Shown here: positions 5,205-39,862 of the stretch, piece after piece | How the letters are laid out: each line of letters opens with the position of its first letter | How positions within the stretch are numbered: the first letter of the stretch is position 1 | Source of the DNA: Alphaproteobacteria bacterium | GTDB lineage: Bacteria; Pseudomonadota; Alphaproteobacteria; MPNO01 | NCBI GenBank assembly: GCA_965248835.1 | Contig: CBDFLJ010000002.1 | Span: forward strand, 2,542,848 to 2,606,847 | Reading direction: 5' to 3' | Length of the DNA stretch: 64,000 bases | The notes under the pieces: model-generated | The model's database searches: none | Told to the model about the DNA's origin: nothing | Seen by the model: the letters and a program-made list of their open reading frames with translations, nothing else | Program-made: the position numbers and the translations under genes

Positions 5205-5213
5205 GACCCGGGC

Positions 5214-6556: not shown

Positions 6557-6657
6557 GCTCTGTTCACCTCATGCAGGTAACGTGGGCAGAGTTTGCGCCG
6601 GATCGCCCTTCGGAGCTAGTGTTCGGCGCCAGGAATCGGTCGACGGGAGCGCGAAGC

Positions 6658-9043: not shown

Positions 9044-11358
9044 CGTCTGGCGGCCTCGATCAGGGCGACGATCTTGGGCGGCGTTACCGGATAGTCGGTC
9101 ACCTTGACGCCGAAGGGCGACAGCGCGTCCTCGATCCCGGCAACGACGGCCGCCGCCGCCGGCACCGTGCCGCATTCGCCGACGCCTTTGACACCCAGCG
9201 GGTTGAGCGGCGAGGGCGTCTCTTCGAAGTGGAGGTCGAGCCGGGTCAGCTCGCTTGCGGTCGGCATCACGTAGTCGGCCAGGGTCGTCGTCAACGGCTG
9301 CCCGGCCTCGTCGTAGCCCATCCATTCATACAGCGCGTTGCCGATGCCGTGGACCACCCCGCCGGTCACCTGACCGTCGACCAGCATCGGGTTGACCATT
9401 CGGCCGCAGTCGCTGACCACCACGTAGCGGTTGAAGGAGACCGCGCCGGTCTCGACATCGACCTCGACCTCCACCGCATGCACGCCGTTGGAATAGGCCA
9501 GCCCGGAAGGCTTGAAGTTGACGTTGGCCTCCAGCCCCGCCTCGACGCCCTCGGGCAGCGAATAGCCGGGCACGCCCGAGGCGGCCTCGGCGACCTCGCT
9601 CATCGGCACCGACAGGTCCGGCGCGCCGGCGACGCGGATCCGGCCGTCGACGATCTCCAGATCCTCGGGCGCGGCCTCCAGCATGTGGGCGGCGAGTTTG
9701 AGGACCTTCTCGCGCACCTCGCGGGCGGCGAGGTGGACCGAGGAGCCCGCGGTCACGGTCTGGCGGCTGGCGAACCCGCCGAGCCCAAGGGCGACCGTCG
9801 CGGTGTCGCCGCACACGACCTCGATCTCGGCCGGGTCGACGCCGACCTGCTCGGCAGCGATCTGGGCGAGGATAGTCTTCAGCCCCTGGCCGATCGCGAG
9901 CGCTCCGGTGAAGACCTTCACCCGGCCGGAGCGCTCGATCCGCACGATGCCGGACTCGAACGGCCCGCGCCCGGTGCCCTTGAGTCCGTTGGCAAGCCCG
10001 AGCCCGAGATAGCGCCCTTCCGCCCGCGCGGCAGCCTGGCGTGCAGCGAACGAGCCCGCCTCAACCGCATCGAGCGCGATCGCCTGGCATTTCGGGTAGT
10101 CGCCGCTGTCGGCCTTCACCGGCGTGCCGGCCCGGGTCTTGAGCGGCATCTCGTAGGGCATCGCCTCGGGCGGGATCAGGTTGCGCCGGCGGATCTCGCC
10201 GCGGTCCATGCCGAGCCCGGCGGCGGCCGCATCGAGCAGCCGCTCGATCACGTAATTGCCCTCCGGATAACCGGCGCCGCGCACCGGCATCGCCGGCACG
10301 GCGTTGGTCTCGACCACCTTCACGGCGATCTCCAGGGCCGGCACGATGTAGGCACCCGGCACCGAGGTCGAGGCGTTGTAGGCCAGATTGATGCCCTGGG
10401 GCGTGTATGCGCCCTGGTCCTGCAGCATCGTGCCGCGTACCCCCAGCACCCTGCCCTCGCCGTCGACGGCGATCTCCATGTCCCAGAACTGCTCGCGTTC
10501 CTGGATCGAGGCCACGAAATGCTCGCGCCGGTCTTCGATCCACTTGACCGGGCGGTCGAGCAGCCTGGCTGCGACGGCCAGCACCAGCTCCTCGCAATAC
10601 ATCAGGTACTTGGCGCCGAACCCGCCGCCGACGTCGGGCGCCACGACGCGGATCCGGGCCTCTTCGCTGCCCAACATCCTGACCAGCCCGGCGCGGACCT
10701 CGTGGGACATCTGGGTCGAGGACCACAGCGTCAGACGGTCCTCGACGGCATCGTAGCGTGCGATCGCGCCGCGCCCCTCGATCGAATGGGCGCCGCCGCG
10801 GTGCTGGGTATAGGTCGCGCGCGCCACATAGGCGGCGCGTTCGAAGGCCGCCGCGCACTCGCCGTAGGACTGGTCGAACTCGACCAGGACGTTGCTGGGC
10901 CGCTCTGTATGGACCGGCGGGGCGTCCGAAGCGGCGGCTGCGCGGCAACCGGCGACCGAGGGCAGCGGGTCGTAGTCGACCTCGACCAGGGCTGCGCCGT
11001 CCTCGGCCAGATAGCGGCTGGCAGCGATGACCACTGCGACCGCCTCGCCGACATGGCAGACCTCGGTGTCCGACAGCACGTAGGGCGTGACGTCCTCGGG
11101 AAGCTGGTTGGTGCGGAACCCCAGCGGCAGGCGCGATGCGGTCAAATGCGGCAGGAGATCGGCAAGGGTGTAGACCGCGTGGACCCCGGCCGCCGCCTTG
11201 GCCGCTTCGCTGTCGATGGCACCCACCCTGGCGTGGGGATGGGGCGAGCGCACGAAGACCGCGTGCAACGTGCCGGGGATATGGATGTCATCGACGAACC
11301 GCGCTTTGCCGCGCAGCATTGCCGGGTCTTCGATCCTGCGGACCCGCTGTCCGATCAT
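9040..11358 (-). CDS. Xanthine dehydrogenase/CoxL-family molybdopterin-binding large subunit
   Basis: 'IGQRVRRIED', 'DVGGGFGAK', active-site loop 'PVRGAGYPE', 'GQGLKT', 'KGVGECG'. Lacks the form I CODH motif AYxCSFR. Confidence 0.92.
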   Translation of the reverse strand: MIGQRVRRIEDPAMLRGKARFVDDIHIPGTLHAVFVRSPHPHARVGAIDSEAAKAAAGVHAVYTLADLLPHLTASRLPLGFRTNQLPEDVTPYVLSDTEVCHVGEAVAVVIAASRYLAEDGAALVEVDYDPLPSVAGCRAAAASDAPPVHTERPSNVLVEFDQSYGECAAAFERAAYVARATYTQHRGGAHSIEGRGAIARYDAVEDRLTLWSSTQMSHEVRAGLVRMLGSEEARIRVVAPDVGGGFGAKYLMYCEELVLAVAARLLDRPVKWIEDRREHFVASIQEREQFWDMEIAVDGEGRVLGVRGTMLQDQGAYTPQGINLAYNASTSVPGAYIVPALEIAVKVVETNAVPAMPVRGAGYPEGNYVIERLLDAAAAGLGMDRGEIRRRNLIPPEAMPYEMPLKTRAGTPVKADSGDYPKCQAIALDAVEAGSFAARQAAARAEGRYLGLGLANGLKGTGRGPFESGIVRIERSGRVKVFTGALAIGQGLKTILAQIAAEQVGVDPAEIEVVCGDTATVALGLGGFASRQTVTAGSSVHLAAREVREKVLKLAAHMLEAAPEDLEIVDGRIRVAGAPDLSVPMSEVAEAASGVPGYSLPEGVEAGLEANVNFKPSGLAYSNGVHAVEVEVDVETGAVSFNRYVVVSDCGRMVNPMLVDGQVTGGVVHGIGNALYEWMGYDEAGQPLTTTLADYVMPTASELTRLDLHFEETPSPLNPLGVKGVGECGTVPAAAAVVAGIEDALSPFGVKVTDYPVTPPKIVALIEAARR

Positions 11359-12169: not shown

Positions 12170-13282
12170 ATGGCACAGGACAAACGCGACATAAGCTCAA
12201 AGACCCCCACGCGCCGGTCGTTCCTCGCCGGGACGACCGGGCTCGGCCTCATTCTCGCAACGGGCACCGCGCCCGCGTTCATCCGGGAAGCCGGTGCATC
12301 GAAGATGCGCAAGGTCTCCTTCATGCTGCCCTGGCTGTTCGTCGGCGGGCATGCCTTCGAGTTCGCCGCACAGAAGCTCTATTGGAAGAAGCGCGGTCTC
12401 GACGTCTCGATCACCCGCGGCTACGGCTCCGGCGCGGCCTGCAAGACGATCTCCGCCGGCAAAGCGATGTTCGGCGAGGCGAGCTACGGCGTGATGGTCA
12501 ACGGCGTGTCCAAGGGACTCGATGCCGTCGCCATCGGCGCCAAGCTGCAGCGCAGCCCGATCGCGATCTCCTGCCGGCGCGATTCCGGCATCCGCACCGC
12601 GAAGGACCTGGAGGGCAGACGCATCGTCCAGGCCGCGGCCTCGGGCGACACGGTGATGTTCCCGGGCTTCGTCAAGGCCGCGGGCATCGATCGGCCGAAG
12701 ATCAACCAGACCATCGTCCATCCGTCCAAGCTGATCTCGACGGTGGTCAACAAGCAGGCCGACTGCTGCGGCTCCTACTACGTCTCCAACGCGGCCACGC
12801 TGGCCCACAAGACGCCGGCGATCCACTTCATGTACGCCGACTTCGGGCTGCAGACCCTCGATCTCGGGCTGATCACCCGCTCGGACATGATCAAGAACGA
12901 CCCGCAGCTGGTCCAGGACATGGTCGATGGCGGCATGGAGGGGCTCAAGCTGCAGATCCTGGAGCCCGAGAAGTGCCTGGACATCATGATCGAGGCCAAG
13001 CCGGAGCTGAAGACCCTAGACAAGCAGCTCCTTCTGACCCATGCCGGCAATACCAACGCGCTCTCGCTCGGTCCGGCGGTGAAGGAGCACGGCCTCGGCT
13101 ACATGTCCGAATCAGACCAGACCAAGACCCGAGACGTGGTCATCAAGTACATGGAAGCCAAGAACGTTCCGCCGATCGGCGCGCTGTTCACCAACCGCTT
13201 CGCAGGCAACATCAAGTTTTCGGCGAGCGAGTGGGAAACCGCGAACCGCATCAACGCCAAGTTCGCTCCGGCCAAGACCTGA
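12170..13282 (+). CDS. ABC transporter substrate-binding protein (NMT1/THI5/SsuA-like), Tat-exported
   Basis: RBS GGAGG; Tat motif 'TRRSFL'; 'GLDVSITRGYGS', 'KDLEGRRI'; followed by ATPase and permease genes. Confidence 0.85.
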   Translation: MAQDKRDISSKTPTRRSFLAGTTGLGLILATGTAPAFIREAGASKMRKVSFMLPWLFVGGHAFEFAAQKLYWKKRGLDVSITRGYGSGAACKTISAGKAMFGEASYGVMVNGVSKGLDAVAIGAKLQRSPIAISCRRDSGIRTAKDLEGRRIVQAAASGDTVMFPGFVKAAGIDRPKINQTIVHPSKLISTVVNKQADCCGSYYVSNAATLAHKTPAIHFMYADFGLQTLDLGLITRSDMIKNDPQLVQDMVDGGMEGLKLQILEPEKCLDIMIEAKPELKTLDKQLLLTHAGNTNALSLGPAVKEHGLGYMSESDQTKTRDVVIKYMEAKNVPPIGALFTNRFAGNIKFSASEWETANRINAKFAPAKT

Positions 13283-13326
13283 TCCGGACGCCGCGATCTC
13301 CGGATCGCACCCACAAGCCGTAAGGA

Positions 13327-13356
13327 CCGGCCCGCCTCCGTGAGGAGGCGGGCCGG
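13327..13356. other. Intercistronic hairpin (perfect 13-bp stem, GTGA tetraloop) after the binding-protein gene
   Basis: CCGGCCCGCCTCC-GTGA-GGAGGCGGGCCGG. No U-tract, so probably an mRNA stabiliser rather than a terminator. Confidence 0.7.
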
Positions 13357-13368
13357 GTGCTGCGCTCC

Positions 13369-14133
13369 ATGGCCGATAAACCGATCCACGTCGATATCAG
13401 CGCGCTCCGCAAGATCTACCAGACAAGGCGCGAGGAGATCGAAGCGATCCGCAATGTCGACATGGCGGTCTCCGAGGGCGAGTTCGTGTCGATCCTCGGC
13501 CCCAGCGGCTGCGGCAAGTCGACGCTGCTCATGGCGGTCGGCGGCCTGTTGCCGATCAGCGCGGGCTCGATCACGATCCACGAGGAGCATGTCACCGGGC
13601 CCCGGCCGGATACCGGGGTCGTCTTCCAGTCGCCGGTGCTGATGCCCTGGCGGACGATCGAGCGCAACGTCCTGTTCCCGATCGAGAGCCTCGGGCTCAA
13701 GCTCGCCGACTACAGGGCCCATGCCGAAGAGCTGCTGAGCATGACCGGGCTGGACGGCTTCGCCGAGAACTTCCCGGCCGAGCTGTCGGGCGGCATGCAG
13801 CAGCGCGTGGCGATATGCCGTGCGCTGATCCACAACCCGAGCCTGCTGTTGATGGACGAGCCGTTCAGCGCACTCGATGCGATGACCCGCGATCAGATGA
13901 ACCAGGAACTCCTGCGGATCTGGCAGGAATTCCAGAAGACGGTCCTGTTCGTCACCCATTCGATCCGCGAGGCGGTCTTCCTGTCCGACCGGGTGTTCGT
14001 GATGTCGCCGCGGCCGGCGGTGATCAGCAAGGTCGTCGACATCGACCTGCCCCGTCCGCGCACGCTGGAGATCGAGGAGACGCCGGAATTCAACGTCTAT
14101 GTCGCCGGCCTGCGCAAGGCGATCGAAGGCTGA
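13369..14133 (+). CDS. ABC transporter ATP-binding protein (TauB/SsuB type)
   Basis: 'GPSGCGKST', 'LSGGMQQR', 'LLMDEPFSALD', 'FVTHS'. Confidence 0.95.
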   Translation: MADKPIHVDISALRKIYQTRREEIEAIRNVDMAVSEGEFVSILGPSGCGKSTLLMAVGGLLPISAGSITIHEEHVTGPRPDTGVVFQSPVLMPWRTIERNVLFPIESLGLKLADYRAHAEELLSMTGLDGFAENFPAELSGGMQQRVAICRALIHNPSLLLMDEPFSALDAMTRDQMNQELLRIWQEFQKTVLFVTHSIREAVFLSDRVFVMSPRPAVISKVVDIDLPRPRTLEIEETPEFNVYVAGLRKAIEG

Positions 14134-14977: not shown

Positions 14978-15859
14978 GTGTTGAAGCCGCCGAAGTTCGA
15001 CTATTTCGCACCCGAGACGCTGGAGGAGGCCCTGGACCTGCTGTCCCGGCACGGGGCGGATGCCAAGGTTCTGGCCGGTGGCCAGAGCCTGATGCCGATG
15101 CTCAATTTCCGCCTCGCCCGGCCGGCGGTGCTGATCGACCTCAACCGCATCCCGGGTCTCGCCGGGATCGACAACGGCGGCGGGACGATCAGGATCGGCG
15201 CGATGACCCGCCAGCGCGACATCGAGGAGTCCGAGATCGTGGCGCACGCCGCGCCGCTGCTGCATGAGGCCACGCGCCACATCGCGCATCTGCCGATCCG
15301 CACGCGCGGGACCATCGGCGGCAGCATCGCCAACGCCGACCCGGCGGCCGAGGACCCGGCGGTGGCCGTGGCGCTCGATGCAACGATGATCTGCCGCAGC
15401 ACGCGGGGCGAGCGGCGGATCGAGGCGGCCGGGTTCTTTCGTGACGTGCTGACCACCGCGCTCGAGGCCGACGAAATCCTCACCGGCGTCGAATTTCCCG
15501 CGCGAGTCGGCTCGGACACCGGATCGGCGTTCGCCGAGATCAGCCGGCGCGAGGGCGATTTCGCGCTCGCCGGGGTCGCCGCGCAGATCACCTTTGCCGA
15601 CGGCAAGGTCGGCGAGGCGCGCATCGCCGGATGCGGGATCGGCCCGGCACCGATGCGGATCGCCGAGGCGGAAGCGGCACTCCTCGGATCGACCGCCGAT
15701 GCGGCCGCGATCGCCGCCGGCGCCCGAGCCGTTGCCGAGGCGGCCGATCCGCACGGTGACGTCCACGCCAGCGCGGACTACCGCCGCAAGCTCGCCGGCG
15801 CCATCGCTGCCCGCGCGATCGCGACCGCGGCCCGGCGCGCATCCGGAGCGGAACAATGA
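14978..15859 (+). CDS. XDH/CoxM-family FAD-binding medium subunit
   Basis: 'KPPKFDYFAP', 'LAGGQSLMPMLNFRL', 'IRTRGTIGGSIANADPAAE'; RBS GGAGG. Confidence 0.92.
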   Translation: MLKPPKFDYFAPETLEEALDLLSRHGADAKVLAGGQSLMPMLNFRLARPAVLIDLNRIPGLAGIDNGGGTIRIGAMTRQRDIEESEIVAHAAPLLHEATRHIAHLPIRTRGTIGGSIANADPAAEDPAVAVALDATMICRSTRGERRIEAAGFFRDVLTTALEADEILTGVEFPARVGSDTGSAFAEISRREGDFALAGVAAQITFADGKVGEARIAGCGIGPAPMRIAEAEAALLGSTADAAAIAAGARAVAEAADPHGDVHASADYRRKLAGAIAARAIATAARRASGAEQ

Positions 15860-16350
15860 AGCGTTCCGTGACGCTCAAGGTCAATGGCCGGACCCGCAGC
15901 GCCGAGGCCGAGCCGCGCATGCTGCTGTGCGATTTTCTGCGCGAGTCGCTGCGCCTGACCGGCACCCATGTCGGCTGCGAGCACGGCATCTGCGGCGCTT
16001 GCACGGTCCATGTCGACGGCAAGGCGGCGCGGTCGTGCCTGATGCTCGCCGTCCAGGCCGAAGGCGCGGAGATCACCACCATCGAGGGCCTGGCCGACGG
16101 CGAGACGCTGCACATCCTGCAGAGGCTGTTCGCCAAGCACCGGGCGCTGCAGTGCGGCTTCTGCACGCCCGGCATGCTGATGACCGCGCTCGATCTGGTG
16201 GGCCGGCGCCCGAGCATGGACGAGGCGGAGATCCGATCCGGCATGGCGGCGGTCCTGTGCCGCTGCACCGGCTACGAGGGCATCGTGCACGCGATCGCCG
16301 AATACGCCAGCACGCTACCCGGTGCGAAAAGCGGGGAGCCCGCAGGATGA
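15856..16350 (+). CDS. XDH/CoxS-family 2Fe-2S small subunit
   Basis: 'GCEHGICGACTV', 'QCGFCTPG', 'CRCTGY'. Confidence 0.95.
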   Translation: MKRSVTLKVNGRTRSAEAEPRMLLCDFLRESLRLTGTHVGCEHGICGACTVHVDGKAARSCLMLAVQAEGAEITTIEGLADGETLHILQRLFAKHRALQCGFCTPGMLMTALDLVGRRPSMDEAEIRSGMAAVLCRCTGYEGIVHAIAEYASTLPGAKSGEPAG

Positions 16351-18716
16351 GCCGCTCACCCGACGGATATATCGGCCGTTCGGTCCCGCGCCGCGAGGAC
16401 AAGCGGCTGCTGCGCGGCGAGGGCAGCTATGTCGCCGACATAGTGCTGCCCGACATGGTCCACGTCGCCTTCGCGCGCAGCCAGGTCGCCCATGCGGCCA
16501 TCGCTTCGATCGACGTGGCGGCGGCCGGCGGGGCGGAGGGCGTCGTGCTGGCGCTGTCGGGCGCGGATCTCGCCGGCGAGCTTGCGCCGATCGGCGGGAT
16601 GCAGGTCTCCGCGCCCAAGGGCTGGGCCGACCGCGTCCGCCACCGGATCACCTTGCCGCCCCAGCGCATCCTGGCCGACGACAAGGTGCGCTATGTCGGC
16701 GAAGCCTATGCGCTGGCGGTCGCCGAAGACCGTTACCTGGCTGAGGACGCGGTCGAGCTGATCGAGGCCGCGTTCGAGCCGATCCAGGTGCTGCCGGACG
16801 CTGAGGCCGCGCTGGCCGAGGGTGCGCCGGCGGTCCATCCCGAACTCGGCGGCAACGCGGTCGCCGAGCTCCACATCGAAAAGGGCGACGTGGCGGCGGC
16901 GATGGAAGCGGCGCCACATCGGATCAAGCGGCGCTTCGTCCACCACCGCTATGCGGCGATGCCGATGGAATGCCGCGGGGTGGTGGCCGAATACGAGCGC
17001 CGCACCGACACGTTGACCGTCTGGTCCTCGACCCAGGTGGTCCACTGGGTGCGCAAGGAAATCGCGCTCACCCTCGGCCTGCCCGAGGAGAAGATCCGGG
17101 TGATCGCGCCCGATGTCGGCGGCGGGTTCGGCGGCAAGGGCCACGTCTATCCCGAGGACCTGATCATCCCCTACCTCGCCCGCCGGCTCGGCCGGCCGGT
17201 CCGCTGGATCGAAGACCGCCACGAGCACATCCTCAACGCCGCCCATTCGCGCGACAACGTCCACGACGCCGAGATCGGCTTCGACGACGAGGGCCATATC
17301 CTCGCCTTCCGCGATCGTTTCCTGATCGATTCCGGGGCCTATTCGCCGGTCGGCGCCGGGGTCGCCTACAACACGACCGCCCACATGATGGGACCCTACC
17401 GGATCGCGAACTTCGAAGCCGCGATCACCCTGGTGACCACCAACAAGACACCGAACGCGCCCTATCGCGGCGCTGGACGGCCGGAGGCGGTTCAGGTCAC
17501 CGAGCGCATGGTCGACCTGATCGCCGCCCATCTGGGCATCGAGGCGGCCGAGGTCCGGTTTCGCAACATGATCCAGCCCGACCAGATGCCCTATGCGGTA
17601 GGCCTGCCCTACCGCGACGGGGCGCCGATGGTCTATGACGGCGGCGACTATCCGGCCGCGCTGGAGCGCGCGATCGCCGAGGTCGGTGGGCTGGAGGCCT
17701 TCCGGGCGCGCCAGACGGCCGCGCGCGAAGACGGCCGCTATCTCGGGCTCGGGCTGGGCTGCTACACCGAAGGCACCGGCGTGGGCCCGTTCGAAGGCGC
17801 GACCGTCAAGATCGACCCGACGGGCAAGGTGATCGTCGCCACCGGCGCCTGCCCGCAGGGCCAGGGCCACGAGACCATCTTCGCCCAGGTCACCGCCGAC
17901 GCGTGGCGGGTGCCGATGGAGAACGTGGTCGTTCAGCTTGCCGATACTTCGAGCCTCACCATGGGCTACGGCACGCTGGCCAGCCGCAGCACCGTTGCCT
18001 CGTCGATGGCAATCGAGCAGGCCTCGGACAAGGTCAAGGAGCGGGTCTTCGCGGTCGCGGCCCACCTGTTGGAGACCGGCGAGGCCGACCTCGAGCTGCG
18101 CGAGGGCACCGTCGGCGTCAAGGGCGTGCCGGACATGGCGCTGAGCCTGAAGGAGATCGCCGCCGCGGCCGCGCCGGGCTGGCTGAGCCGCCGGCCGCAA
18201 GGCAGCGAGGCCGGGCTCGAGGCAACCAGCTACTACGAGCCGCCGACGGTGACCTGGGCCTACGCCGCCAACGCGGCGATCGTCGAGATCGAGCGCGATA
18301 CCGGACGCGTCAAGGTCGAGAAATACGTCGAGGTCCACGATGCCGGCGTCCTGGTGAACCCGGGCCTCGCCGACGGCCAGGTCAAGGGCGGGCTGGTCCA
18401 GGGTTTGGGCGGGGCGATGTTCGAAGCCCTGGTCTACGACGACAACGGCCAGCTCCTGACCGGCAGCCTCGCGGACTACCTGCTGCCGACCACGGCCGAA
18501 ACCCCGCCGATCGTCGTCATCCACCAGGAAACCCCCAGTCCGGCCAACCCGCTGGGCGTCAAGGGTCTGGGCGAAGGCGGCGCCATCGCCCCGCCGGTGG
18601 TGATCGCCAACGCCGTCTCCGACGCGCTCAAGCCGTTCGGTGCGGAGTTCAACACCCTGCCGATACGCTGGGAGGATGTGCTGGACGTCCTGGACCGCGG
18701 CGGCGCCCAGGGGTAG
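16347..18716 (+). CDS. XDH/CoxL-family molybdopterin-binding large subunit (form II-like motif)
   Basis: 'IGRSVPRRED', 'DVGGGFGGK', 'APYRGAGRPEA', 'GQGHET', 'KGLGEGG'. ATGA overlap with the small subunit gene. Confidence 0.93.
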   Translation: MSRSPDGYIGRSVPRREDKRLLRGEGSYVADIVLPDMVHVAFARSQVAHAAIASIDVAAAGGAEGVVLALSGADLAGELAPIGGMQVSAPKGWADRVRHRITLPPQRILADDKVRYVGEAYALAVAEDRYLAEDAVELIEAAFEPIQVLPDAEAALAEGAPAVHPELGGNAVAELHIEKGDVAAAMEAAPHRIKRRFVHHRYAAMPMECRGVVAEYERRTDTLTVWSSTQVVHWVRKEIALTLGLPEEKIRVIAPDVGGGFGGKGHVYPEDLIIPYLARRLGRPVRWIEDRHEHILNAAHSRDNVHDAEIGFDDEGHILAFRDRFLIDSGAYSPVGAGVAYNTTAHMMGPYRIANFEAAITLVTTNKTPNAPYRGAGRPEAVQVTERMVDLIAAHLGIEAAEVRFRNMIQPDQMPYAVGLPYRDGAPMVYDGGDYPAALERAIAEVGGLEAFRARQTAAREDGRYLGLGLGCYTEGTGVGPFEGATVKIDPTGKVIVATGACPQGQGHETIFAQVTADAWRVPMENVVVQLADTSSLTMGYGTLASRSTVASSMAIEQASDKVKERVFAVAAHLLETGEADLELREGTVGVKGVPDMALSLKEIAAAAAPGWLSRRPQGSEAGLEATSYYEPPTVTWAYAANAAIVEIERDTGRVKVEKYVEVHDAGVLVNPGLADGQVKGGLVQGLGGAMFEALVYDDNGQLLTGSLADYLLPTTAETPPIVVIHQETPSPANPLGVKGLGEGGAIAPPVVIANAVSDALKPFGAEFNTLPIRWEDVLDVLDRGGAQG

Positions 18717-19307
18717 TCAGCCCAGCTCGTAAGGCACCTGCCGTGGGCCGTAGCGCTGGACGCGGGTGCCGGCCTCGGCATCGTACCAGTTCTGCAAATT
18801 GGTGCCGACATTGCCGCTACGCACGATGATCCCGATGGTCTTTTCGGGTCCGTTATATTCGGCATGGACCTTGCCCGGCGGGACGAAGTCGATATAGCCC
18901 GGCTTGACGTCGTGCTCGCCCTCACGCTCCAGGGCGGCGCGGCCAGGGTCGCTGTCGTCGTCGGTCCGCCGGTAGCGGTGGACGGTCTCGCCGCCCCGCA
19001 GGACGCCGTAGAGCGTCCACACCCCGCCATGGTCGTGGATCGGCGTGCCCTCGCCCGCTTCCTTGATCAGCGCATTGATGACGAAGCCGTAATCCGGGTC
19101 CTCATAGAACAGAAGGTTCTCGTAATGGCCCCTGGCAGGATCGTTGCGCGACGGCCAAGTCCGCGAATGCGCGATCAGTGCCTCGTCCTGGAGCAGCTTG
19201 TCGAGGTGCGGGCGCACCTTCTCCCAGCGCTCCGCCACGTCGGCGACCTCCTCATAGAGGGTCCGCATGGTGTCGATGAATTCCTGGACCGCCGGCAGCA
19301 TCGCCAT
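18717..19307 (-). CDS. Cysteine dioxygenase-like cupin protein
   Basis: 'LLFYEDPDYGFVINAL', 'TPIHDHGGVWTLYGVLRG.E', 'PGKVHAE'. Start uncertain. Confidence 0.75.
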   Translation of the reverse strand: MAMLPAVQEFIDTMRTLYEEVADVAERWEKVRPHLDKLLQDEALIAHSRTWPSRNDPARGHYENLLFYEDPDYGFVINALIKEAGEGTPIHDHGGVWTLYGVLRGGETVHRYRRTDDDSDPGRAALEREGEHDVKPGYIDFVPPGKVHAEYNGPEKTIGIIVRSGNVGTNLQNWYDAEAGTRVQRYGPRQVPYELG

Positions 19308-19394
19308 AACCGCCTCCAATCGCCGTTGCCACCCCGCCATCCTACATCAAACGCGAATTTGCGGTAGTCTCGCCCGGCGACAAGGGAGGGTGCG

Positions 19395-21915: not shown

Positions 21916-23112
21916 TCAGCGTCTGAAAGCCTGCTGACGGGCGAAAAATTTGTCGATCGCTGCGATGACGGCCTCGGCGATGCGGGCCCGTTCCGCCGGG
22001 CTGGTCAGCCGCCTCTCGTCGGACCGGTTGGACAGATGGCCGAGTTCGACCAGAACCGATGGGACATCGGGCGCCTTGAGGACCGCGAACCCGGCGAAGC
22101 GATGGGTGTTGCGCAGCAGCAACCGCACCTTGCCGAGCGCGCGGGTCAGCGATTTGGCGAACACCGCGGATTCGTTCATGGTCTCGCGCTGCGCCAGATC
22201 GATCAGGATCGACGCGACGTCCGAGCTCTGGCGGGTCAGGTTGATGCCGGCGATCACGTCGGCCTTGTTTTCCTTGGCCGCGAGTGCGGCGGCCTTGGCG
22301 TCAGAGGCCCGTTCGGAGAGCGTGTAGACCGAGGCGCCGCGGATGCGCCGGTTCCTGTTCGAATCGGCATGGAGCGAGATGAACAGATCCGCATCCGCGG
22401 CGCGCGCGATCGCCACCCGCTTATGCAGTCGCACGAAGCGATCGCGCGCGCGCGTCAGCACCACGCGGTAGCGCCCGGTGGCGCGCAGCCGCTTGGCGAG
22501 GACCAGCGCGTGGCCGAGCGTGACACGCTTCTCGCGCGTGCCGCTGACCCCGATCGCGCCGGGATCGACACCGCCATGGCCGGGATCGATCGCGATGACC
22601 GGCCGGGGCTTGGCCTTCGGGCGCGGCCTGGGCGGCGTCCGGATCCGCGCGGCCGCACCGGTCTCGGCCGGAGGCGCGGACCGACGCGCCCGGCCGGCGA
22701 ACTCGGCGCTGCCGATCGTCCGTATATCGATCACCAGCCGGTGACCCTGGCCGCCCAAGGGCGGCAGGATGAAGGATTTCGCAACCTCCACCGGCCCGGC
22801 GACGTCCAGCACGACCCGCGAGACGCCGTCGCGGAAATGGCCGTATCGGAAGGCCTGGATCAGCCCGCCGGTCGGGATCTTAAGCAGGCCGAGCTTCCAG
22901 CCGACTTGCGGCAGGTCGATGACCACGCGGTAGGGATCGCCGAGCGTGAAGACCTTGAACCCGACCGAGGCCGACAGGTCGAGGACGAAGCGGGTCTTGT
23001 CGAGACCCTGTCCGATCCGCACGCCGGTGACGTCGGGAGCCCCGGCAGCCGGTCCCGCGAGCCCGATCGCCACAAGGGCAGCCACCCGAATCGTCCGGCA
23101 TCTTCGCCACAT
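21916..23112 (-). CDS. amiC: N-acetylmuramoyl-L-alanine amidase (AMIN + Amidase_3)
   Basis: 'TRFVLDL', 'IDPGHGGVDPGA', 'FISLHADS', 'VLKAPDVPSVLVELG'. Confidence 0.92.
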   Translation of the reverse strand: MWRRCRTIRVAALVAIGLAGPAAGAPDVTGVRIGQGLDKTRFVLDLSASVGFKVFTLGDPYRVVIDLPQVGWKLGLLKIPTGGLIQAFRYGHFRDGVSRVVLDVAGPVEVAKSFILPPLGGQGHRLVIDIRTIGSAEFAGRARRSAPPAETGAAARIRTPPRPRPKAKPRPVIAIDPGHGGVDPGAIGVSGTREKRVTLGHALVLAKRLRATGRYRVVLTRARDRFVRLHKRVAIARAADADLFISLHADSNRNRRIRGASVYTLSERASDAKAAALAAKENKADVIAGINLTRQSSDVASILIDLAQRETMNESAVFAKSLTRALGKVRLLLRNTHRFAGFAVLKAPDVPSVLVELGHLSNRSDERRLTSPAERARIAEAVIAAIDKFFARQQAFRR

Positions 23113-23140
23113 CTTGGAGGTTCCCGAACACCAACCACTA

Positions 23141-23170
23141 TATATACTCGAATTGAGCGAAAATATTCAA
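23141..23170 (-). promoter_or_regulatory. Putative sigma70 promoter for amiC
   Basis: Minus strand TTGAAT-N18-TATATA in an AT-rich patch about 30 bp upstream of the ATG. Confidence 0.5.
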
Positions 23171-23192
23171 CGTCTCGGCGGGCGCATGGCGC

Positions 23193-23714
23193 CTATTCCA
23201 GGATCCGGTAATTGCCGCGATAGCGCGCCATGAGGTCGATGTAGTCCTGGGCGCCGCGGGCGATCCAATCCGCAGCGGTCCCTTCGAGCGGCTTGCGGAC
23301 GCTGGCCGGGGTTCCGGCGGCGAGGCTGCGGGCCGGCACCTCGCAGCCTTCGCGGACGACGCTGCCGGCGCCGATGATCGATTCCGGCCCGATGCGCGCA
23401 CCGTCAAGGACGACCGCGCCCATGCCGATCAGGCTCGACCGGCCGATCCAGCAATCGTGCAGGATCGCGCCGTGGCCGACGGTCACCCGGTCCTCGAGCA
23501 CGGTGCCGTGCTCGGACTCGGCGTGGATGACCACATTGTCCTGGATGTTGGAGTCCGCGCCGACCCGAATCGGCCCCAGATCGCCCCGCAGAACCGCGCC
23601 GAACCAGACGCTGACGCCGTCCTCGATCACTACGTCGCCGAGGATCACCGCGGTCGGGGCGATGAAAACATTCCCGCCGATTTTGGGCGCAGTACCCTCG
23701 AAGGCGATCAGCAT
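23193..23714 (-). CDS. Gamma carbonic anhydrase family protein (YrdA/CaiE/PaaY-like)
   Basis: Hexapeptide repeats; 'SVWFGAVLRGD', 'SNIQDNVVIH', 'TVGHGAILH' (three Zn-His). Confidence 0.9.
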   Translation of the reverse strand: MLIAFEGTAPKIGGNVFIAPTAVILGDVVIEDGVSVWFGAVLRGDLGPIRVGADSNIQDNVVIHAESEHGTVLEDRVTVGHGAILHDCWIGRSSLIGMGAVVLDGARIGPESIIGAGSVVREGCEVPARSLAAGTPASVRKPLEGTAADWIARGAQDYIDLMARYRGNYRILE

Positions 23715-23727
23715 GCGGGCCGCGCGG

Positions 23728-23982
23728 TCAGTCGCGCAGGTCGTTGAGCGCGAGGATGGCGTATTCCTCGATATTGCCCATCGCATTGCCCCGCACGACT
23801 TCGGCCAGCTCCTGGTGGTCGTCGACGTCGACCAGGCTCGCGTAGCCCTTGAGCCCGGCGATCGGGAAGACCTTTGCGCGATTGCTCGCCCCGAGTTCGA
23901 CGAAATGATTGACGCAGGCACCGACCGGCGCGTCCTTGGTGCGGTGCGGCGGGGGCCGGTTGATGATCAGGAACTTCGCCAT
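23728..23982 (-). CDS. Small muconolactone isomerase/DUF3303-like protein (paralog B)
   Basis: RBS GAGG; 'DVDDHQELAEVVRGNAMGNIEEYAILAL' resembles the neighbouring gene and the dimeric alpha-beta barrel family. Confidence 0.6.
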   Translation of the reverse strand: MAKFLIINRPPPHRTKDAPVGACVNHFVELGASNRAKVFPIAGLKGYASLVDVDDHQELAEVVRGNAMGNIEEYAILALNDLRD

Positions 23983-24008
23983 GTCGATGTCCTCGTGCCG
24001 TGCCGTGC

Positions 24009-24311
24009 TCAGGTGATGATCCCCGCCTCGCGCATCGCAGCCGTCTCGCCTTCCAGCGTCCCCAGCGGGTAGACTTGGTATTCGCCCCAGCTTCCCAGCG
24101 GGTTGCGAAACAGGATGGCCATCAACTCATCGTGGTCCTCGACGTCGAGGAACACCGCGAACCCTGCGCCATTGTCCTCGACGATCTCATAGACCTCCGC
24201 CTTGCCCTCATCGCGCAGCGCCCGCCATTGGGCGCGCGCGCCCTCGACATTGGCCTTGGCCGGGATCGGTTTCTTGGGCCGGGCCAGGACCAGAAATTTC
24301 GACATCGCCAT
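24009..24311 (-). CDS. Small muconolactone isomerase/DUF3303-like protein (paralog A)
   Basis: RBS GAGGG; 'FLDVEDHDELMAILFRNPLGSWGEYQVYPL' resembles the CatC/DUF3303 C-terminal pattern. Confidence 0.65.
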   Translation of the reverse strand: MAMSKFLVLARPKKPIPAKANVEGARAQWRALRDEGKAEVYEIVEDNGAGFAVFLDVEDHDELMAILFRNPLGSWGEYQVYPLGTLEGETAAMREAGIIT

Positions 24312-24331
24312 CCCTCGGACCCCGCCGTTGG

Positions 24332-24403
24332 CTAGAGCCTGTTCCGAACAAGCCGGGCGGCAGGCCGGGCCGGGCCGGCTTGATCAGATCGGAACATGCG
24401 TCA
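24332..24403. repeat. Palindromic intergenic repeat element (TAGAGC...-type alphaproteobacterial repeat)
   Basis: Nested inverted repeats TGTTCCGA(24340-47)/TCGGAACA(24389-96) and CAAGCCGG(24349-56)/CCGGCTTG(24375-82). Related partial copies elsewhere in the window. Confidence 0.65.
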
Positions 24404-25651
24404 GTCCCTGACCGCGCCGATCAGATCGATTTCGACCATCGAGCCCGGCACCAGGAGGCCGGTCGTGCCGACCGTGGTGCGCGCCGGCGGCGTCCTGAAA
24501 TATTCTTTCCAGACCTCATCGAAGGCATCGAACTGGTTGAGGTCCTCCAGGAACACCTGGGCCTTGACCACCTCATCGAGGCTGCTGCCGGCCGCGGCGA
24601 AAGTCTTGGCCAGATTCTTGAGCACGTAGTGCGTGCGCTTTTTGATGTCCGAGCCGTAGAACGGAAACGCCGGGTCGCAACGCGCCTCGACCGGCACCCC
24701 GGTCTCGAAGTCCGAGGGAAGCTGGCCCGCGGCGAACACCAGGTCGCCCACCCGATAGGCCTCGGTATAGTTCGCCAGCGGCTGCGGCGCGTCGGATTTA
24801 ATCGCGCGGCATGCGGTCGCGCCCGGCACATAGCCGATCAGGTCGATCTCGATCATCGAGCCCGGCACCAGGAGGCCGGTCGTGCCGATCGTCGTGCGCG
24901 CCGGCGGGGACTTGAAATATTCTTTCCAAACCTCATCGAAAGCATTGAATTCGTTAAGGTTTTCGAGAAAGACCTGGGCCTTGACGACGTGGTCTAGCGA
25001 GGAACCTGCCGCCGCGAAGGTCCTGGCCAGGTTGTTGAGCACGTAGTGCGTGCGCTTCTTGATGTCCGAGCCGTAGAACGGAAACGCCGGATCGACGCGC
25101 GCCTCGGGCGGAATCCCGGTCTTGAAGTCCGAGGGAAGCTGGCCAGCAGCGAACACCAGGTCGCCCACCCGATAAGCCTCGGTATAGTTCGCCAGCGGCT
25201 GCGGCGCATCCGAGGTGACCGAGATGCAGTCGAGTTCGCCCGGCACGTAGCCGATCAGGTCGATCTCGATCATCGCATCCTTGACCAGGAGCCCGGTTGT
25301 GCCGACCGTCGTGCGTGCCGGCGGCGTCCTGAAATATTCTTTCCAGACCTCATCGAAGGCATTGAATTCGTTAAGGTCCTCCAGAAAGACCTGTGCCTTG
25401 ACGACGTGGTCGAGCGAGGAACCAGCAGCCTCGAAGGTCTTGGTGAGGTTGTCGAGCACGTATCGCGTGCGCTTCTTGATGTCCGAGCCGTAGAACGGAA
25501 ACGCCGGATCGACGCGTGCCTCGGGCGGGATCCCGGTCTTGAAATCGCTCGGCAGTTGTCCGGCGGCGAACACCAGCCCGCCCGCACGATAGGCCTCGGT
25601 ATAGTTGGCAAGCGGCTGCGGGCTATTGGACTTTATGGCTTCGACGCGCAC
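24401..25651 (-). CDS. Protein of three tandem RidA/YjgF/UK114 domains
   Basis: Three units of about 139 aa, each with 'PQPLANYTEAY', 'VFAAGQLP', 'AGSSLD.VVKAQVFL', 'PPARTT' and 'EIDLIG'. RBS GGGAGG. Confidence 0.92.
   Translation of the reverse strand: MRVEAIKSNSPQPLANYTEAYRAGGLVFAAGQLPSDFKTGIPPEARVDPAFPFYGSDIKKRTRYVLDNLTKTFEAAGSSLDHVVKAQVFLEDLNEFNAFDEVWKEYFRTPPARTTVGTTGLLVKDAMIEIDLIGYVPGELDCISVTSDAPQPLANYTEAYRVGDLVFAAGQLPSDFKTGIPPEARVDPAFPFYGSDIKKRTHYVLNNLARTFAAAGSSLDHVVKAQVFLENLNEFNAFDEVWKEYFKSPPARTTIGTTGLLVPGSMIEIDLIGYVPGATACRAIKSDAPQPLANYTEAYRVGDLVFAAGQLPSDFETGVPVEARCDPAFPFYGSDIKKRTHYVLKNLAKTFAAAGSSLDEVVKAQVFLEDLNQFDAFDEVWKEYFRTPPARTTVGTTGLLVPGSMVEIDLIGAVRD
24410..25630. repeat. Intragenic direct repeat, 3 x 417 bp
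   Basis: The anchor AGCGGCTGCGG recurs at 24777, 25194 and 25611 (spacing 417); long identical DNA stretches between copies. Confidence 0.92.
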
Positions 25652-25680
25652 ATCTGCCTCCCGTTGGACGGCGTCCGGTC

Positions 25681-25709
25681 ATCTAACTAGCCGCCGGTTA
25701 GGGTGTCAA
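25681..25709 (-). promoter_or_regulatory. Putative sigma70 promoter of the triple-Rid operon
   Basis: Minus strand perfect TTGACA (25709-25704), N17, then TTAGAT; about 30 bp upstream of the ATG. Confidence 0.6.
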
Positions 25710-25753
25710 TCGAGCCGGATTCGGTCGCGGACCGGACCCGTGTGCGTTATTGG

Positions 25754-25782
25754 TTGAGCGGCGGCGCTGCCAAGTCTATACT
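25754..25782 (+). promoter_or_regulatory. Putative sigma70 promoter of rne
   Basis: TTGAGC-N17-TATACT, implying a leader of about 300 nt before the ATG at 26095. Confidence 0.62.
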
Positions 25783-26094
25783 ACTTGAACCGCCTGAGGG
25801 TGGTCGCGCATCGGCAAGCGATGCGCGAGCGCAGCGGACGGCGCACGGCATGCGATCTGCGATGCCTGTCCGTGGCGCGGCGCACCTGAAGATCCTAGGA
25901 GAAAATCACGGCCGCGCTTCCAAAAGGCCCCGAACACGGCTGCCGCCACCGATCGGTTGGGGGAAATGCCCGGCTTCGCGCCGTGCACCCCGATCGCGGC
26001 ACGGCGCCGCGGGCCCTGCCGGCCACCAGACAGCCGCACGCGCCCGGACGACCGAACAACGGGTCGTCGGGCGCCGGCCTCGGAGACCCAATTC

Positions 26095-28641
26095 ATGACC
26101 AAACGCATGTTGATCGACGGCTCCCACCCCGAAGAGGAGCGTGTCGTCATTACCAGCGCCAACCGGCTCGATGAGTACGATGTCGAGACCTCGACGAAAA
26201 AACGGATCAAAGGCAACATCTATCTCGCCAAGGTAACGCGCGTCGAACCGTCGCTGCAGGCGGCCTTCGTCGATTTCGGCGGCGACCGCCACGGGTTCCT
26301 CGCCTTCAACGACATCCATCCCGACTATTTCCAGATCCCGATCGAGGACCGCAAGGCCCTGATCGAGGAGGAAAGCGCCGAACAGCAGCAGGAGGATGCC
26401 GTCCAGGCGCTGGTCGACGAAATCGACGGCGCGATCGCCGATCAGGACGACGACTCCGGCCCGCCCGAAGAAGACGGGCAGGAAGTCGCCGATGCCTGGG
26501 CTGACGGCGTTTCGACGGACGAGGAATCGCCTGGTGTCGAGACCGGCGAGGGAGTGGCGGCGGCGCCCGCCGAAGTCGAGACCGCGACCGGTTCGGATGC
26601 CGAAGCCGATGCGCTCGAAGCGATCCCGGACGACCAGGCGGGTGAAGACGCTCAAGACGACGCCGAGGCCAAGCCGGCGTCCGGGCCGGCGCGCCGCGGC
26701 CGCAGACGGAACGCGGTCGACGCCGGCAGCGACGACGCGGAGATCCGCCTGTCGCGGCGCCGGGCCAGGCGCTACAAGATCCAGGAGGTCATCAAGCGCC
26801 GTCAGATCATCCTGGTCCAGGTCGTCAAGGAGGAACGCGGCAACAAGGGCGCCGCGCTGACGACCTATATCTCGCTCGCCGGGCGGTACTGCGTCTTGAT
26901 GCCCAACACCGCGCGCGGCGGCGGGATTTCGCGCAAGATCACCAACACCTCCTCGCGCCGAAAACTCAAGGAGATCCTGAACGAGCTGGAGATCCAGGAC
27001 GGCATGGGCGTGATCATGCGCACCGCCGGCATGGAAAGAACAAAATCGGAGATCAAGCGGGATTTCGAATATCTGTTCCGGGCCTGGGACGATATTCGAG
27101 AGCGCACCATGCAGTCGATCGCGCCGACGCCGGTCTACGAGGATGCCAGCCTGATCAAGCGCGCCATCCGCGACCTCTATACCAAGGATATCGAGGAGGT
27201 GCTGATCGAGGGCGCCGACGCCTATCAGACCGCCAAGAAGTTCATGCGGCTGATGATGCCGAGCCACGCCAAACGCGTGCAGCCCTATCGCGACGAAAAC
27301 ATTCCGCTGTTCCATCGCTACCAGGTGGAAGACCAGCTCGATGCGATACACAGCCCGGAGGTCCAACTGAAATCCGGCGGCTATATCGTCATCCACTCCA
27401 CCGAGGCGCTGGTGGCGGTCGACGTGAACTCCGGCAAATCCACGCGTGAGAGGAACATCGAGGAAACCGCGCTCAAGACCAACCTGGAGGCCGCGGACGA
27501 AGTTGCCCGCCAGCTCCGGCTGCGCGACCTGGCTGGCCTGGTGGTGATCGATTTCATCGACATGGAGGAGAGCCGCCACCTGCGTCAGGTCGAGCGCCGG
27601 CTCAAGGACGCGATGAAGCCCGACCGGGCGCGGATTCAGATCGGCCGCATAAGCGGCTTCGGCCTGCTCGAAATGTCGCGCCAGCGACTGCGGCCGAGCC
27701 TGCAGGAGGCCAGCACCCAGATCTGCCAGCACTGCCATGGCCAGGGCTTTGTGCGGTCCACCGAATCGATGGCGCTGGTGGTGCTGCGTGCGCTGGAGGA
27801 CGAAGGCATCCGCCAACGCTCCAGCGATATCTCGGTGGCGGTGCCGACCTCGGTGGCGCTATATGTGCTGAACAACAAGCGCAAGGCCTTGGGCGACATC
27901 GAGGCGCGCTACGGATTCAGCATCAGCCTTATCGGCGATGACACGGTGGTCCCGCCCGATATGAGGATCGAACGGACCAAGGCGCTCCCGACGGAGGCCA
28001 TGGCCGAGCGCGTGCCGGCAGCGGAAGAGGCCGCGCCCGCCGAGGCGGCGGTCGTTGACGCAACCGAACCAGCGGAGACCGGCAAGGAAGACGGCGAGCA
28101 CAAGCAGACCCGAGCGCGCCGGTCACGCCGCCGTAGGGCCACGCCGGAGACGGCGGCCGAGGCTGCACCCGAAGCCGCAGAGGCCGGTGCGGAGAACGCG
28201 CCGGCCGCGGAGACCGCGGAGCTGGAAGAGACCGCTGCGCCCAAGCGCCGCCGCCGTGGACGACGCGGCGGTCGCGGACGGAGCGCGCGCGGCGAGCAGA
28301 CCGGATCGGCGGTGGCCGATGAGGCCGAAACCGACGAGACCACGCCGGAGAGCGAGGCCGATCCGATCACCGCGACCAATGGCGCGGGAGCGGAGCCCGC
28401 CGCCATGGAGCCCGAAACCGCAGATGTGCAGCCCGCGCCGGCAGACGATGCAGCGCTGGAAGCCGCTCCGGCCGAGTCGCCGGCCGAACCGGAGGGGTCG
28501 AACGGCGAGCAGGAGCGTGAAGCCGTGGAGGAGTCCGCCGCGGACGACGACGTCGAGGCGCCCGCACCGGTCGCCGTCCCGCATGAGGTTGCGGCCGGTC
28601 CACCGCGCCGCCGCGGCTGGTGGCAGCGGCTGGTCGACTAA
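26095..28641 (+). CDS. rne: Ribonuclease E
   Basis: 'KRMLID', 'KGNIYLAKVTRVEPSLQAAFVD', acidic S1 insertion, 'DVNSGKST', 'DFIDM', Zn-link 'CQHCHG', Arg-rich C-terminal region, terminal 'GWWQR'. Confidence 0.97.
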   Translation: MTKRMLIDGSHPEEERVVITSANRLDEYDVETSTKKRIKGNIYLAKVTRVEPSLQAAFVDFGGDRHGFLAFNDIHPDYFQIPIEDRKALIEEESAEQQQEDAVQALVDEIDGAIADQDDDSGPPEEDGQEVADAWADGVSTDEESPGVETGEGVAAAPAEVETATGSDAEADALEAIPDDQAGEDAQDDAEAKPASGPARRGRRRNAVDAGSDDAEIRLSRRRARRYKIQEVIKRRQIILVQVVKEERGNKGAALTTYISLAGRYCVLMPNTARGGGISRKITNTSSRRKLKEILNELEIQDGMGVIMRTAGMERTKSEIKRDFEYLFRAWDDIRERTMQSIAPTPVYEDASLIKRAIRDLYTKDIEEVLIEGADAYQTAKKFMRLMMPSHAKRVQPYRDENIPLFHRYQVEDQLDAIHSPEVQLKSGGYIVIHSTEALVAVDVNSGKSTRERNIEETALKTNLEAADEVARQLRLRDLAGLVVIDFIDMEESRHLRQVERRLKDAMKPDRARIQIGRISGFGLLEMSRQRLRPSLQEASTQICQHCHGQGFVRSTESMALVVLRALEDEGIRQRSSDISVAVPTSVALYVLNNKRKALGDIEARYGFSISLIGDDTVVPPDMRIERTKALPTEAMAERVPAAEEAAPAEAAVVDATEPAETGKEDGEHKQTRARRSRRRRATPETAAEAAPEAAEAGAENAPAAETAELEETAAPKRRRRGRRGGRGRSARGEQTGSAVADEAETDETTPESEADPITATNGAGAEPAAMEPETADVQPAPADDAALEAAPAESPAEPEGSNGEQEREAVEESAADDDVEAPAPVAVPHEVAAGPPRRRGWWQRLVD

Positions 28642-39674: not shown

Positions 39675-39862
39675 GGAACTCCTCGACGGGCGGCTGGCGG
39701 CGGCCCGGATGCCTCTTGGCCCCGTCAGCGGGTCGAGAATATTGCACTTGTCGGAAGTCCCGTCCAGCCTGACGGCAGCGGCTTGCCGCTTGCCGCTTGC
39801 CATCACTGCCGTGGCATCATTCAATGCCACCGCGATAGATCAATCGTGTTTTGGAGACGCAA

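Follow-up and report, generated by a model that had tools for sequence, protein, structure and literature searches.

A triple-Rid gene and a rare pair of small paralogous proteins form a conserved cassette in alphaproteobacterial genomes

Between rne and amiC, an alphaproteobacterial genome (assembly GCA_965248835.1, contig CBDFLJ010000002.1) carries a small gene cassette at positions 23193–25709 of the 64,000-nucleotide stretch analyzed here (contig positions 2,542,848 to 2,606,847, forward strand; hereafter the window). The core of this cassette is three genes—Rid3, encoding three Rid domains in one chain, and MIa and MIb, encoding two small paralogous proteins—with gCA, a gene of the gamma-class carbonic-anhydrase (CA) family, as an optional fourth. 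The newer part of the locus is the MIa/MIb pair, not the triple-Rid gene. We tentatively favor reading the cassette as an autonomous small operon in which a single-chain Rid pseudo-trimer would hydrolyze an imine or enamine, while a heterodimer of MIa with the Cys-bearing MIb would act on the same, possibly sulfur-linked, intermediate. An initial annotation of this DNA had proposed a dedicated four-gene catabolic module, in which the Rid protein deaminates an enamine such as 2-aminomuconate, the CatC-like pair isomerizes ring-cleavage lactones, and a PaaY/CaiE-like protein assists, with NH3 and CO2 possibly released; its interpretation as a whole is partly supported by the analyses below.

Rid3, MIa, and MIb Form the Conserved Core

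The cassette consists of four minus-strand genes in the same orientation and in the order Rid3, MIa, MIb, gCA. This layout, with its short gaps, had been described in the initial annotation and was borne out by the open reading frame (ORF) list and the sequence:

25651..24401, minus strand: Rid3 (3x-RidA gene), 416 aa, GTG start, with GGGAGG at 25662–25657, six bases upstream
25651–25235, 25234–24818, and 24817–24404, minus strand: tandem Rid domains of Rid3, three PF01042 stretches
24311..24009, minus strand: MIa, small protein predicted to have the muconolactone-isomerase (MIase) fold, 98–100 aa, likely start 24305
23982..23728, minus strand: MIb, paralog of MIa, 84 aa, with a near-invariant Cys23
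23714..23193, minus strand: gCA, gamma-class CA-family gene, 173 aa, accessory cassette member

Intergenic gaps measure 89 bp from Rid3 to MIa (95 bp if MIa begins at its second Met, 24305, where its relatives begin in the MIa/MIb alignment), 26 bp from MIa to MIb, and 13 bp from MIb to gCA; a further 80 bp lie between gCA and amiC (23112..21916), and rne is the divergent neighbor upstream of Rid3. Both small genes are under purifying selection: the ratio of nonsynonymous to synonymous substitution rates (dN/dS) is 0.085–0.12 for MIa in four of five comparisons with relatives (dS was saturated against locus L010) and 0.12–0.26 for MIb in five comparisons, which marks MIa and MIb as real genes. 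A plus-strand ORF at 23293–24072, chosen by a greedy gene caller based on GC content at third codon positions (GC3), is spurious; this caller mis-called the cassette region and was relied on for larger flanking genes only.

Of 8000 candidates scored in a word-indexed protein search with Rid3, 2039 matched at E ≤ 1e-3. Among the 120 matches listed, all except one are 369–453 aa long, most being 414–429 aa and 58–100% identical, and the source names are of the "RidA family" type only. The exception, P0001, has 557 aa, is 68% identical over the full query, and by its length looks like a four-repeat form; it was found once, on a 3.3-kb contig.

Linkage to MIa and MIb is confined to the closest relatives. 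Species-representative genomes were scanned with an alignment of 17 Rid3 relatives, yielding 316 stretches, 202 of them encoding a relative, and the best 80 were taken as loci L001–L080. By tblastn of six window proteins, MIa and MIb lie directly downstream of Rid3 in 11 of the 80 loci (L001–L011), and these are every locus among the best 80 whose Rid3 is at least 78% identical. The hosts are Defluviicoccus or alphaproteobacterial metagenome-assembled genomes (MAGs), plus one MAG labeled Rhizobium. When six-frame ORFs from the window and the 80 loci were searched with a profile hidden Markov model (HMM) built from MIa and MIb, 24 matched, two per source in exactly 12 sources and always right after Rid3, and no distant MI domain was detected near the other 69 Rid3 loci. 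Co-localization of homologs, which the initial annotation had put forward as a check, therefore holds for MIa and MIb beside Rid3 in 11 of 11 close relatives but not for L012–L080, which have no MI or gCA gene within 6 kb.

The flanks of the 12 cassettes span at least four genomic settings. amiC follows the cassette in eight loci and rne is divergent upstream in seven, L006 having amiC only. Elsewhere the neighbors are an OpuAC-type binding protein, glutathione S-transferases (GSTs), an amidohydrolase, and an FAD oxidase (L003); an amidase, an acyl-CoA ligase, and a Liv-type ABC transporter (L010); or RF2, a CoA-transferase, a GST, and LysS (L011). gCA follows MIb in only 3 of the 12 cassettes—the window, L003, and L010—so an obligate four-gene system, as originally proposed, is not supported; the differing flanks and the sporadic gCA together identify Rid3–MIa–MIb as the conserved, movable unit. 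In a FastTree phylogeny of Rid3 the gCA-bearing loci are early branches. The corresponding IQ-TREE analysis has backbone support of 44–78% and groups L018, which lacks MI genes, with L010 at 99%; given this weak backbone and the L018 grouping, an ancestral gCA that was later lost is only suggestive. Neither MIa nor Rid3 found a tblastn match in 72,556 plasmid records.

Outside the cassette clade, triple-Rid genes keep different company. Across the 80 loci, every ORF that encodes 60 aa or more and lies no farther than 4 kb from Rid3 was clustered, and one representative per cluster was scanned in Pfam. A Peripla_BP_6 binding-protein gene lies immediately upstream of Rid3 in 33 of 80 loci, with 35 of the 37 ORFs of this cluster on the same strand, while a BPD_transp_2 permease cluster occurs in 37 loci and an ABC ATPase cluster in 43. 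In most lineages, 3x-Rid genes thus close a Liv-type uptake operon, L018 being an example. At L012, two different 3x-Rid genes stand in direct tandem (4672–5934 and 6001–7254), the upstream one also with three PF01042 stretches.

The literature searched holds no described operon with the Rid3–MIa–MIb(–gCA) combination, although papers elsewhere may exist; within this scope, the initial view of an undescribed gene combination is upheld. In the same literature, "3x-RidA" occurs in PMC4433059 alone, and "muconolactone isomerase-like" phrasings occur nowhere.

Conserved Start Signals Delimit the Cassette

Three sequence elements lie in or next to the cassette:

25709..25681, minus strand: cassette promoter-like element, TTGACA at 25709–25704, 17-nt spacer, TTAGAT at 25686–25681
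23170..23142, minus strand: amiC promoter-like element, downstream cassette boundary, TTGAAT, 17 nt, GTATAT
24341..24395, minus strand: GC-rich imperfect inverted repeat in the Rid3–MIa spacer, window-specific

The TTGACA box before Rid3 and the separate promoter-like motif before amiC had both been noted in the initial annotation; both are present, and both are conserved in 9/9 regions of alignments comprising the window and eight relatives with amiC after the cassette. Upstream of Rid3, CGAT[T/A]GACA is invariant in all nine regions amid poorly conserved surrounding DNA—the box reads TTGACA in six and TAGACA in three—and an A-rich −10-like hexamer follows 17 nt downstream in the regions retaining the spacer. 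Upstream of amiC, both boxes are kept whether gCA or MIb precedes. Cassette and amiC thus have separate conserved start signals, and these signals, together with linkage in 12 of 12 sources, bear out the idea that the cassette is its own unit.

A strict sigma-70 consensus scan of 22900–26100 found no minus-strand promoter and did not call the TTGACA/TTAGAT site; its sole promoter call is on the plus strand at 25754–25782, on the rne side. The same scan found no minus-strand terminator-like site in this interval. The shared strand, gaps of 13–95 bp, conserved −35 box, separate amiC promoter, and lack of a minus-strand terminator in the scan argue for an operon. In two relatives the distance from the Rid3 stop to the MIa ATG is much shorter than the window spacer: L003 has 40 nt and L001 only 9 nt, and the 9-nt gap suggests coupled translation.

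Two further candidates in this region were rejected. The inverted repeat in the Rid3–MIa spacer, considered as a conserved attenuator, folds into a stem-loop, but its stability does not exceed that of shuffled sequences (z 0.24) and relatives lack it. Three plus-strand "terminators" (24622–24636, 25039–25053, and 25456–25470, against a shuffle expectation of 2.0 ± 1.5) are an artifact, being one antisense sequence that recurs in each Rid repeat.

On the upstream side, rne is listed with a TTG start at 25957, but its conserved N-terminus runs from a Met at 26095. The Rid3–rne interval (25652–26094, ~440 bp) contains blocks conserved among relatives, which is consistent with a long rne leader. 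L006 has no rne match within 6 kb, and in it tandem ~14-nt units (GAGAGGTGTCCCGC-like), at ~5900–5990 upstream of Rid3, replace the region conserved in other relatives.

Rid3 Is a Predicted Single-Chain Pseudo-Trimer

Rid3 comprises three PF01042 stretches (E 2.1e-79), and on TIGR00004 (cutoff 106.25) the whole protein scores 246.8 bits but each repeat by itself only 84.8–87.3 bits. The triple-Rid form, part of a system put forward as undescribed in the initial annotation, is not new; it was named "3x-RidA" by Niehaus et al. in 2015, with EF_0115 of Enterococcus faecalis, and presumed to form covalently linked trimer units (PMC4433059). The available part of that paper's text gives neither biochemical data nor gene context for 3x-RidA and says nothing of a linkage to MIase-fold genes or Liv-type ABC transporters, and the terms "muconolactone," "transporter," and "permease" occur in it 0 times. 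Rid3 shares with 3x-RidA the three tandem PF01042 domains in one chain, the essential Arg in each repeat, and the predicted covalent trimer unit, and differs in that its repeats singly fall under the TIGR00004 cutoff, carry a conserved 11-residue insertion relative to PH0854, and evolve in concert.

Each of the three repeats retains the Arg, Tyr, and Glu that bind substrate in RidA. Of the Arg residues, R113 and R391 are invariant across 17 diverse homologs, with R252 at least 90% conserved, and Y17/Y156/Y295 and E129/E268/E407 are likewise invariant or at least 90% conserved. The PAR motif of Rid3 aligns with the PAR of a solved RidA-family chain. According to the available text of PMC4433059, Arg105 of Escherichia coli TdcF is essential for imine hydrolysis, and roles are likewise given for Tyr17 and Glu120.

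The repeats, whose borders lie 139 aa apart, are 81–83% identical in protein and 77–83% in DNA in the window. Placed in one tree, the 51 single repeats of 17 proteins cluster according to protein or lineage and not according to position, with 12–15 label changes needed per position class, which indicates concerted evolution.

The AlphaFold2 (AF2) model of Rid3 has a predicted local distance difference test (pLDDT) score of 90.6 and a predicted template-modeling (pTM) score of 0.91. Single repeats match RidA structures in Foldseek with template-modeling (TM) scores of 0.85–0.88, and the top whole-chain matches are chorismatases (TM 0.60–0.64 on the target, over ~380 columns). Rid3 is accordingly predicted to fold as a single-chain pseudo-trimer, the trimer-like packing of its domains being a prediction from the AF2 model and the chorismatase matches. 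Chorismatases of the FkbO/Hyg5 type (PDB 4bps, 5ag3, and 5a3k) also have three YjgF/Rid-like domains per chain; their domains have diverged strongly from one another, with a single active site among them. They are only 13–14% identical to Rid3, whose repeats are near-identical, RidA-type, and each furnished with the Arg.

PDB sequence matches bear on the ring-cleavage proposal in both directions: a Rid-family 2-aminomuconate deaminase, 6izh, is among them at E 3.7e-11, but the best matches are generic RidA-type chains and not an aminomuconate deaminase.

The window also holds a second, single-domain Rid-superfamily gene at 39851–40327 (plus strand; 158 aa; PF14588 YjgF_endoribonc, with a weak 29.7 bits on TIGR00004), located between an NDUFA12-like gene and a FemAB-like gene.

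MIa and MIb Belong to a Rare Family That Includes Fused Forms

MIa and MIb are paralogs, as had been recognized initially, with tblastn cross-matches of 30–36% identity at E 1e-7 to 1e-9. Their family assignment is less direct. MIa scores 26.1 bits on PF02426 (MIase), just short of the gathering cutoff of 26.7, and MIb has no Pfam match at E ≤ 0.01 and no PDB sequence match at E ≤ 10. The AF2 model of MIa (pLDDT 85.5) has a beta-alpha-beta-beta-alpha-beta core with a C-terminal helix, and its best structural relatives are ClcF (Foldseek E 6e-6, TM 0.63–0.71, 24–26% identity) and muconolactone isomerase (1mli, E 1.8e-3); MIb probably has an MIase-type fold as well, judging from its paralogy with MIa. 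The muconolactone-isomerase-like label is therefore apt for the predicted fold of MIa, which speaks for the ring-cleavage proposal, but it is not matched by the Pfam results for either protein.

Comparison with ClcF and muconolactone isomerase (PF02426; PDB 1mli, 3znj, 3zo7, and 4fpi) defines both the likeness and its limits. MIa has the same predicted ferredoxin-like fold over ~95 residues, and a D-V-x-x-H-D-E-L stretch is shared. In contrast to the single homo-oligomeric subunit of those enzymes, however, MIa and MIb are obligately paired paralogs, and the 37 window ORFs include no catechol-pathway genes nearby. Residue 27 of ClcF, a Glu, aligns with Ala in MIa and, via the MIa/MIb alignment A2, with Cys23 of MIb. 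Loss of this Glu counts against lactone isomerization by the pair.

The family is rare. A profile search with MIa/MIb across 1.84 billion representative proteins at E ≤ 1e-3 recovered 45 representative clusters, among which two long repeat proteins, P0259 and P0277, look spurious. Six of the 45 are two-domain fusions with an MIb-type domain first and an MIa-type domain second (P0238, P0239, P0241, P0242, P0246, and P0247), and P0267 looks like a truncated seventh; P0242 occurs on contigs of up to 1.6 Mb, so this fusion at least is no short-contig artifact. A C-terminal rhodanese domain (PF00581) is present in 4 of the 18 MI representatives scanned in Pfam (P0239, P0241, P0246, and P0261), with the loops CRTGNRS or CERGNRS in the first three. 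A further MI–rhodanese fusion, P0291, has nine member sequences, lies on a 280-kb contig, and carries the source name "rhodanese-related sulfurtransferase."

The family has near-invariant Cys, His, and Asn residues. The Cys occupies profile column 23 in MIb-type domains, the P0251 group excepted, and MIb Cys23 is conserved in at least 90% of alignment A4.

Other relatives are more remote. The nearest named clusters to MIa-type and MIb-type proteins in language-model feature space are DUF3303 (scores 0.91–0.93) and MIase, and the more distant members of the profile search weakly match YCII, GYD, and DUF3303 models. DUF3303 (PF11746), a dimeric alpha/beta-barrel family, is also similar in length; however, neither MIa nor MIb has a PF11746 match at E ≤ 0.01, and the likeness adds no functional information because DUF3303 is not mentioned in the literature searched.

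Ferredoxin-like alpha+beta barrels arise as homodimers, as paralog heterodimers, or as tandem fusions, according to the available part of PMC4835899. Siroheme decarboxylase and chlorite dismutase/DyP, treated there, likewise have paralogous half-barrels encoded by adjacent genes or in one fused chain; these proteins are heme binders, and the analogy is one of assembly, not of function. The constant pairing of MIa with MIb, the MIb–MIa fusions, and this known mode of barrel assembly argue for an MIa/MIb heterodimer.

gCA Is an Accessory Gamma-Class Carbonic-Anhydrase-Family Protein

By sequence, gCA is a plain gamma-class CA-family protein: a gamma-CA-like hexapeptide protein of the left-handed beta-helix type (PF00132, E 6.5e-22) whose best PDB match is 9qev, "Carbonic anhydrase, family 3" (E 4e-41). 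The His residues of its VIH and GHxxxxH motifs, which we take to be the three metal ligands, align with His residues of the 9qev chain. All NCBIfam scores are below cutoff—170 bits for gamma-CA (cutoff 250), 150 for PaaY (319.6), and 136 for CaiE (305)—and those for the two catabolic types, PaaY and CaiE, which the initial annotation had brought up, are far below. The 37 window ORFs scanned include no paa or cai genes, and neither do the L003, L010, and L011 flanks. The window gCA is 73% identical to the L003 copy and 63% to the L010 copy, compared with 84% and 78% for Rid3 and 76% and 58% for MIb.

Possible Function of the Cassette

We infer the reaction, the step order, and the substrate, as well as any contact that Rid3 makes with MIa/MIb. 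In the tentatively favored reading, Rid3 has three sites that differ slightly, and at these it would hydrolyze an imine or enamine bearing a carboxylate, giving a keto acid and ammonia. MIa and MIb would form one heterodimeric alpha+beta barrel, whose working residue would be the conserved MIb Cys at the ClcF Glu27 position, and this barrel would share its labile intermediate with Rid3, acting in the step directly before or directly after. Its chemistry could be that of a thiol-based isomerase or eliminase, or of a sulfur acceptor. Of the leads available, sulfur chemistry is the best, owing to the rhodanese fusions, and the most concrete substrate candidate may be a sulfur-containing amino-acid derivative. 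Where present, gCA might handle CO2/bicarbonate or a related side reaction, and would be dispensable.

Several observations weigh against this reading. At L018, a Rid3 of the same clade follows a Liv ABC transporter and has no MI genes, which shows that Rid3 can do without the pair. Single Rid3 repeats score below the cutoff of the TIGR00004 RidA model, and each has the conserved insertion; Rid3 may therefore differ from RidA in its substrate and even in its reaction. The equivalence of the MIb Cys with Glu27 comes from weak HMM alignments (E 0.44 and 0.015), and the catalytic role of Glu27 is presumed, as the title of PDB 3zo7 ("ClcFE27A," a substrate complex) suggests. The heterodimer is argued from fusions and pairing only, and the genomic context of MI-family members was seen in the 12 cassette loci only. 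No imine- or enamine-generating enzyme (pyridoxal-phosphate-dependent dehydratase or flavin-dependent amine oxidase) was found in the cassette or consistently beside it, and no rhodanese was found in the cassette or among the window ORFs scanned.

A bolder form of the favored reading has, in our estimate, a low probability. In it, MIa and MIb would be unrecognized obligate heterodimeric or fused MIase-fold barrels with a Glu-to-Cys change on one half, engaged in sulfur chemistry—as a persulfide acceptor downstream of a rhodanese, or as a thiol-dependent eliminase/isomerase acting on a sulfur-containing amino-acid derivative—with the 3x-RidA as a dedicated partner that clears the released enamine or imine.

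Among the alternatives, housekeeping damage control survives best, although we regard it as unlikely. Rid3 would then be a general scavenger of 2-aminoacrylate and other imines, and MIa and MIb would be unrelated or regulatory proteins that share its promoter. The cassette does sit amid housekeeping genes (rne, amiC, accBC, clpA, and a lysA-like gene), no substrate-specific partner enzyme is linked to it, and the language-model relatives of the pair are DUF3303 clusters with no assigned function; RidA proteins also act broadly, as stated in the available text of PMC4433059. Mere bystanders, however, would hardly be expected after Rid3 in 12 of 12 cassettes and at least four contexts, nor at the close spacing seen in L001. 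The position of the 3x-Rid family at the ends of substrate-uptake operons outside the clade points to a specific rather than a general role, and the sub-cutoff RidA scores of the single repeats and the presence of another Rid-like gene, of PF14588, in the window likewise tell against general scavenging.

It is also conceivable, though quite improbable, that the MI pair is not enzymatic but a small ligand-binding or stress-type alpha+beta barrel (compare Dabb, YciI, and GYD) that senses or sequesters a metabolite or modulates Rid3. The weak YCII, GYD, and DUF3303 matches of distant family members and the loss of the MIase-family catalytic Glu fit such a role, as do the many nonenzymatic ferredoxin-like proteins that Foldseek lists (PII, PstA, and HI0828, E ~1e-3 to 1e-2). 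The near-invariant Cys, His, and Asn and the fusion to catalytic-type rhodanese fit an active site better, however, and both genes are under strong purifying selection.

The dedicated ring-cleavage module is very improbable: despite the 6izh and ClcF matches and the occurrence of all four genes together in three different settings, gCA is absent from 9 of 12 cassettes, the proposal had drawn on family names only, and no dioxygenase, cycloisomerase, or other ortho- or meta-cleavage gene was found among the 37 window ORFs, nor any ring-cleavage or cycloisomerase gene in the L003, L010, or L011 flanks.

Other Features of the Window

Two large subunits of the molybdopterin xanthine-dehydrogenase/aldehyde-oxidase type lie within the same 10 kb of the window, at 9040–11358 (minus strand) and 15594–18716 (plus strand). 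Near them are a cupin, a CoA-transferase III, a GST, and a nitrile-hydratase-beta-like ORF at 3601–3912. Together they may make up a catabolic island that, judged by position, has nothing to do with the cassette. The window also contains several well-formed ORFs of 89–207 aa with GC3 of 0.85–0.95 and no Pfam match at E ≤ 1e-5, at 18717–19340 and 12484–13700 (both minus strand).

Significance

Among proteins with mostly unassigned natural substrates, those of the Rid family rank with the most widespread, and this locus gives one of them a fixed and rare partner, the MIa/MIb pair. The rhodanese fusions and the conserved Cys at a presumed catalytic position of the fold provide a testable handle on that pair. 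If the Rid3–MI link is false, the cassette would be no more than a lineage-specific operon for small metabolic proteins, of an ordinary kind, in wastewater bacteria resembling Defluviicoccus. If it is true, a small orphan branch of the muconolactone-isomerase/DUF3303 group would receive its first function, and a specific origin of Rid substrates in vivo would be indicated; the bolder, sulfur-based form, should it hold, would add a new two-component route joining sulfur transfer to Rid-type deamination.

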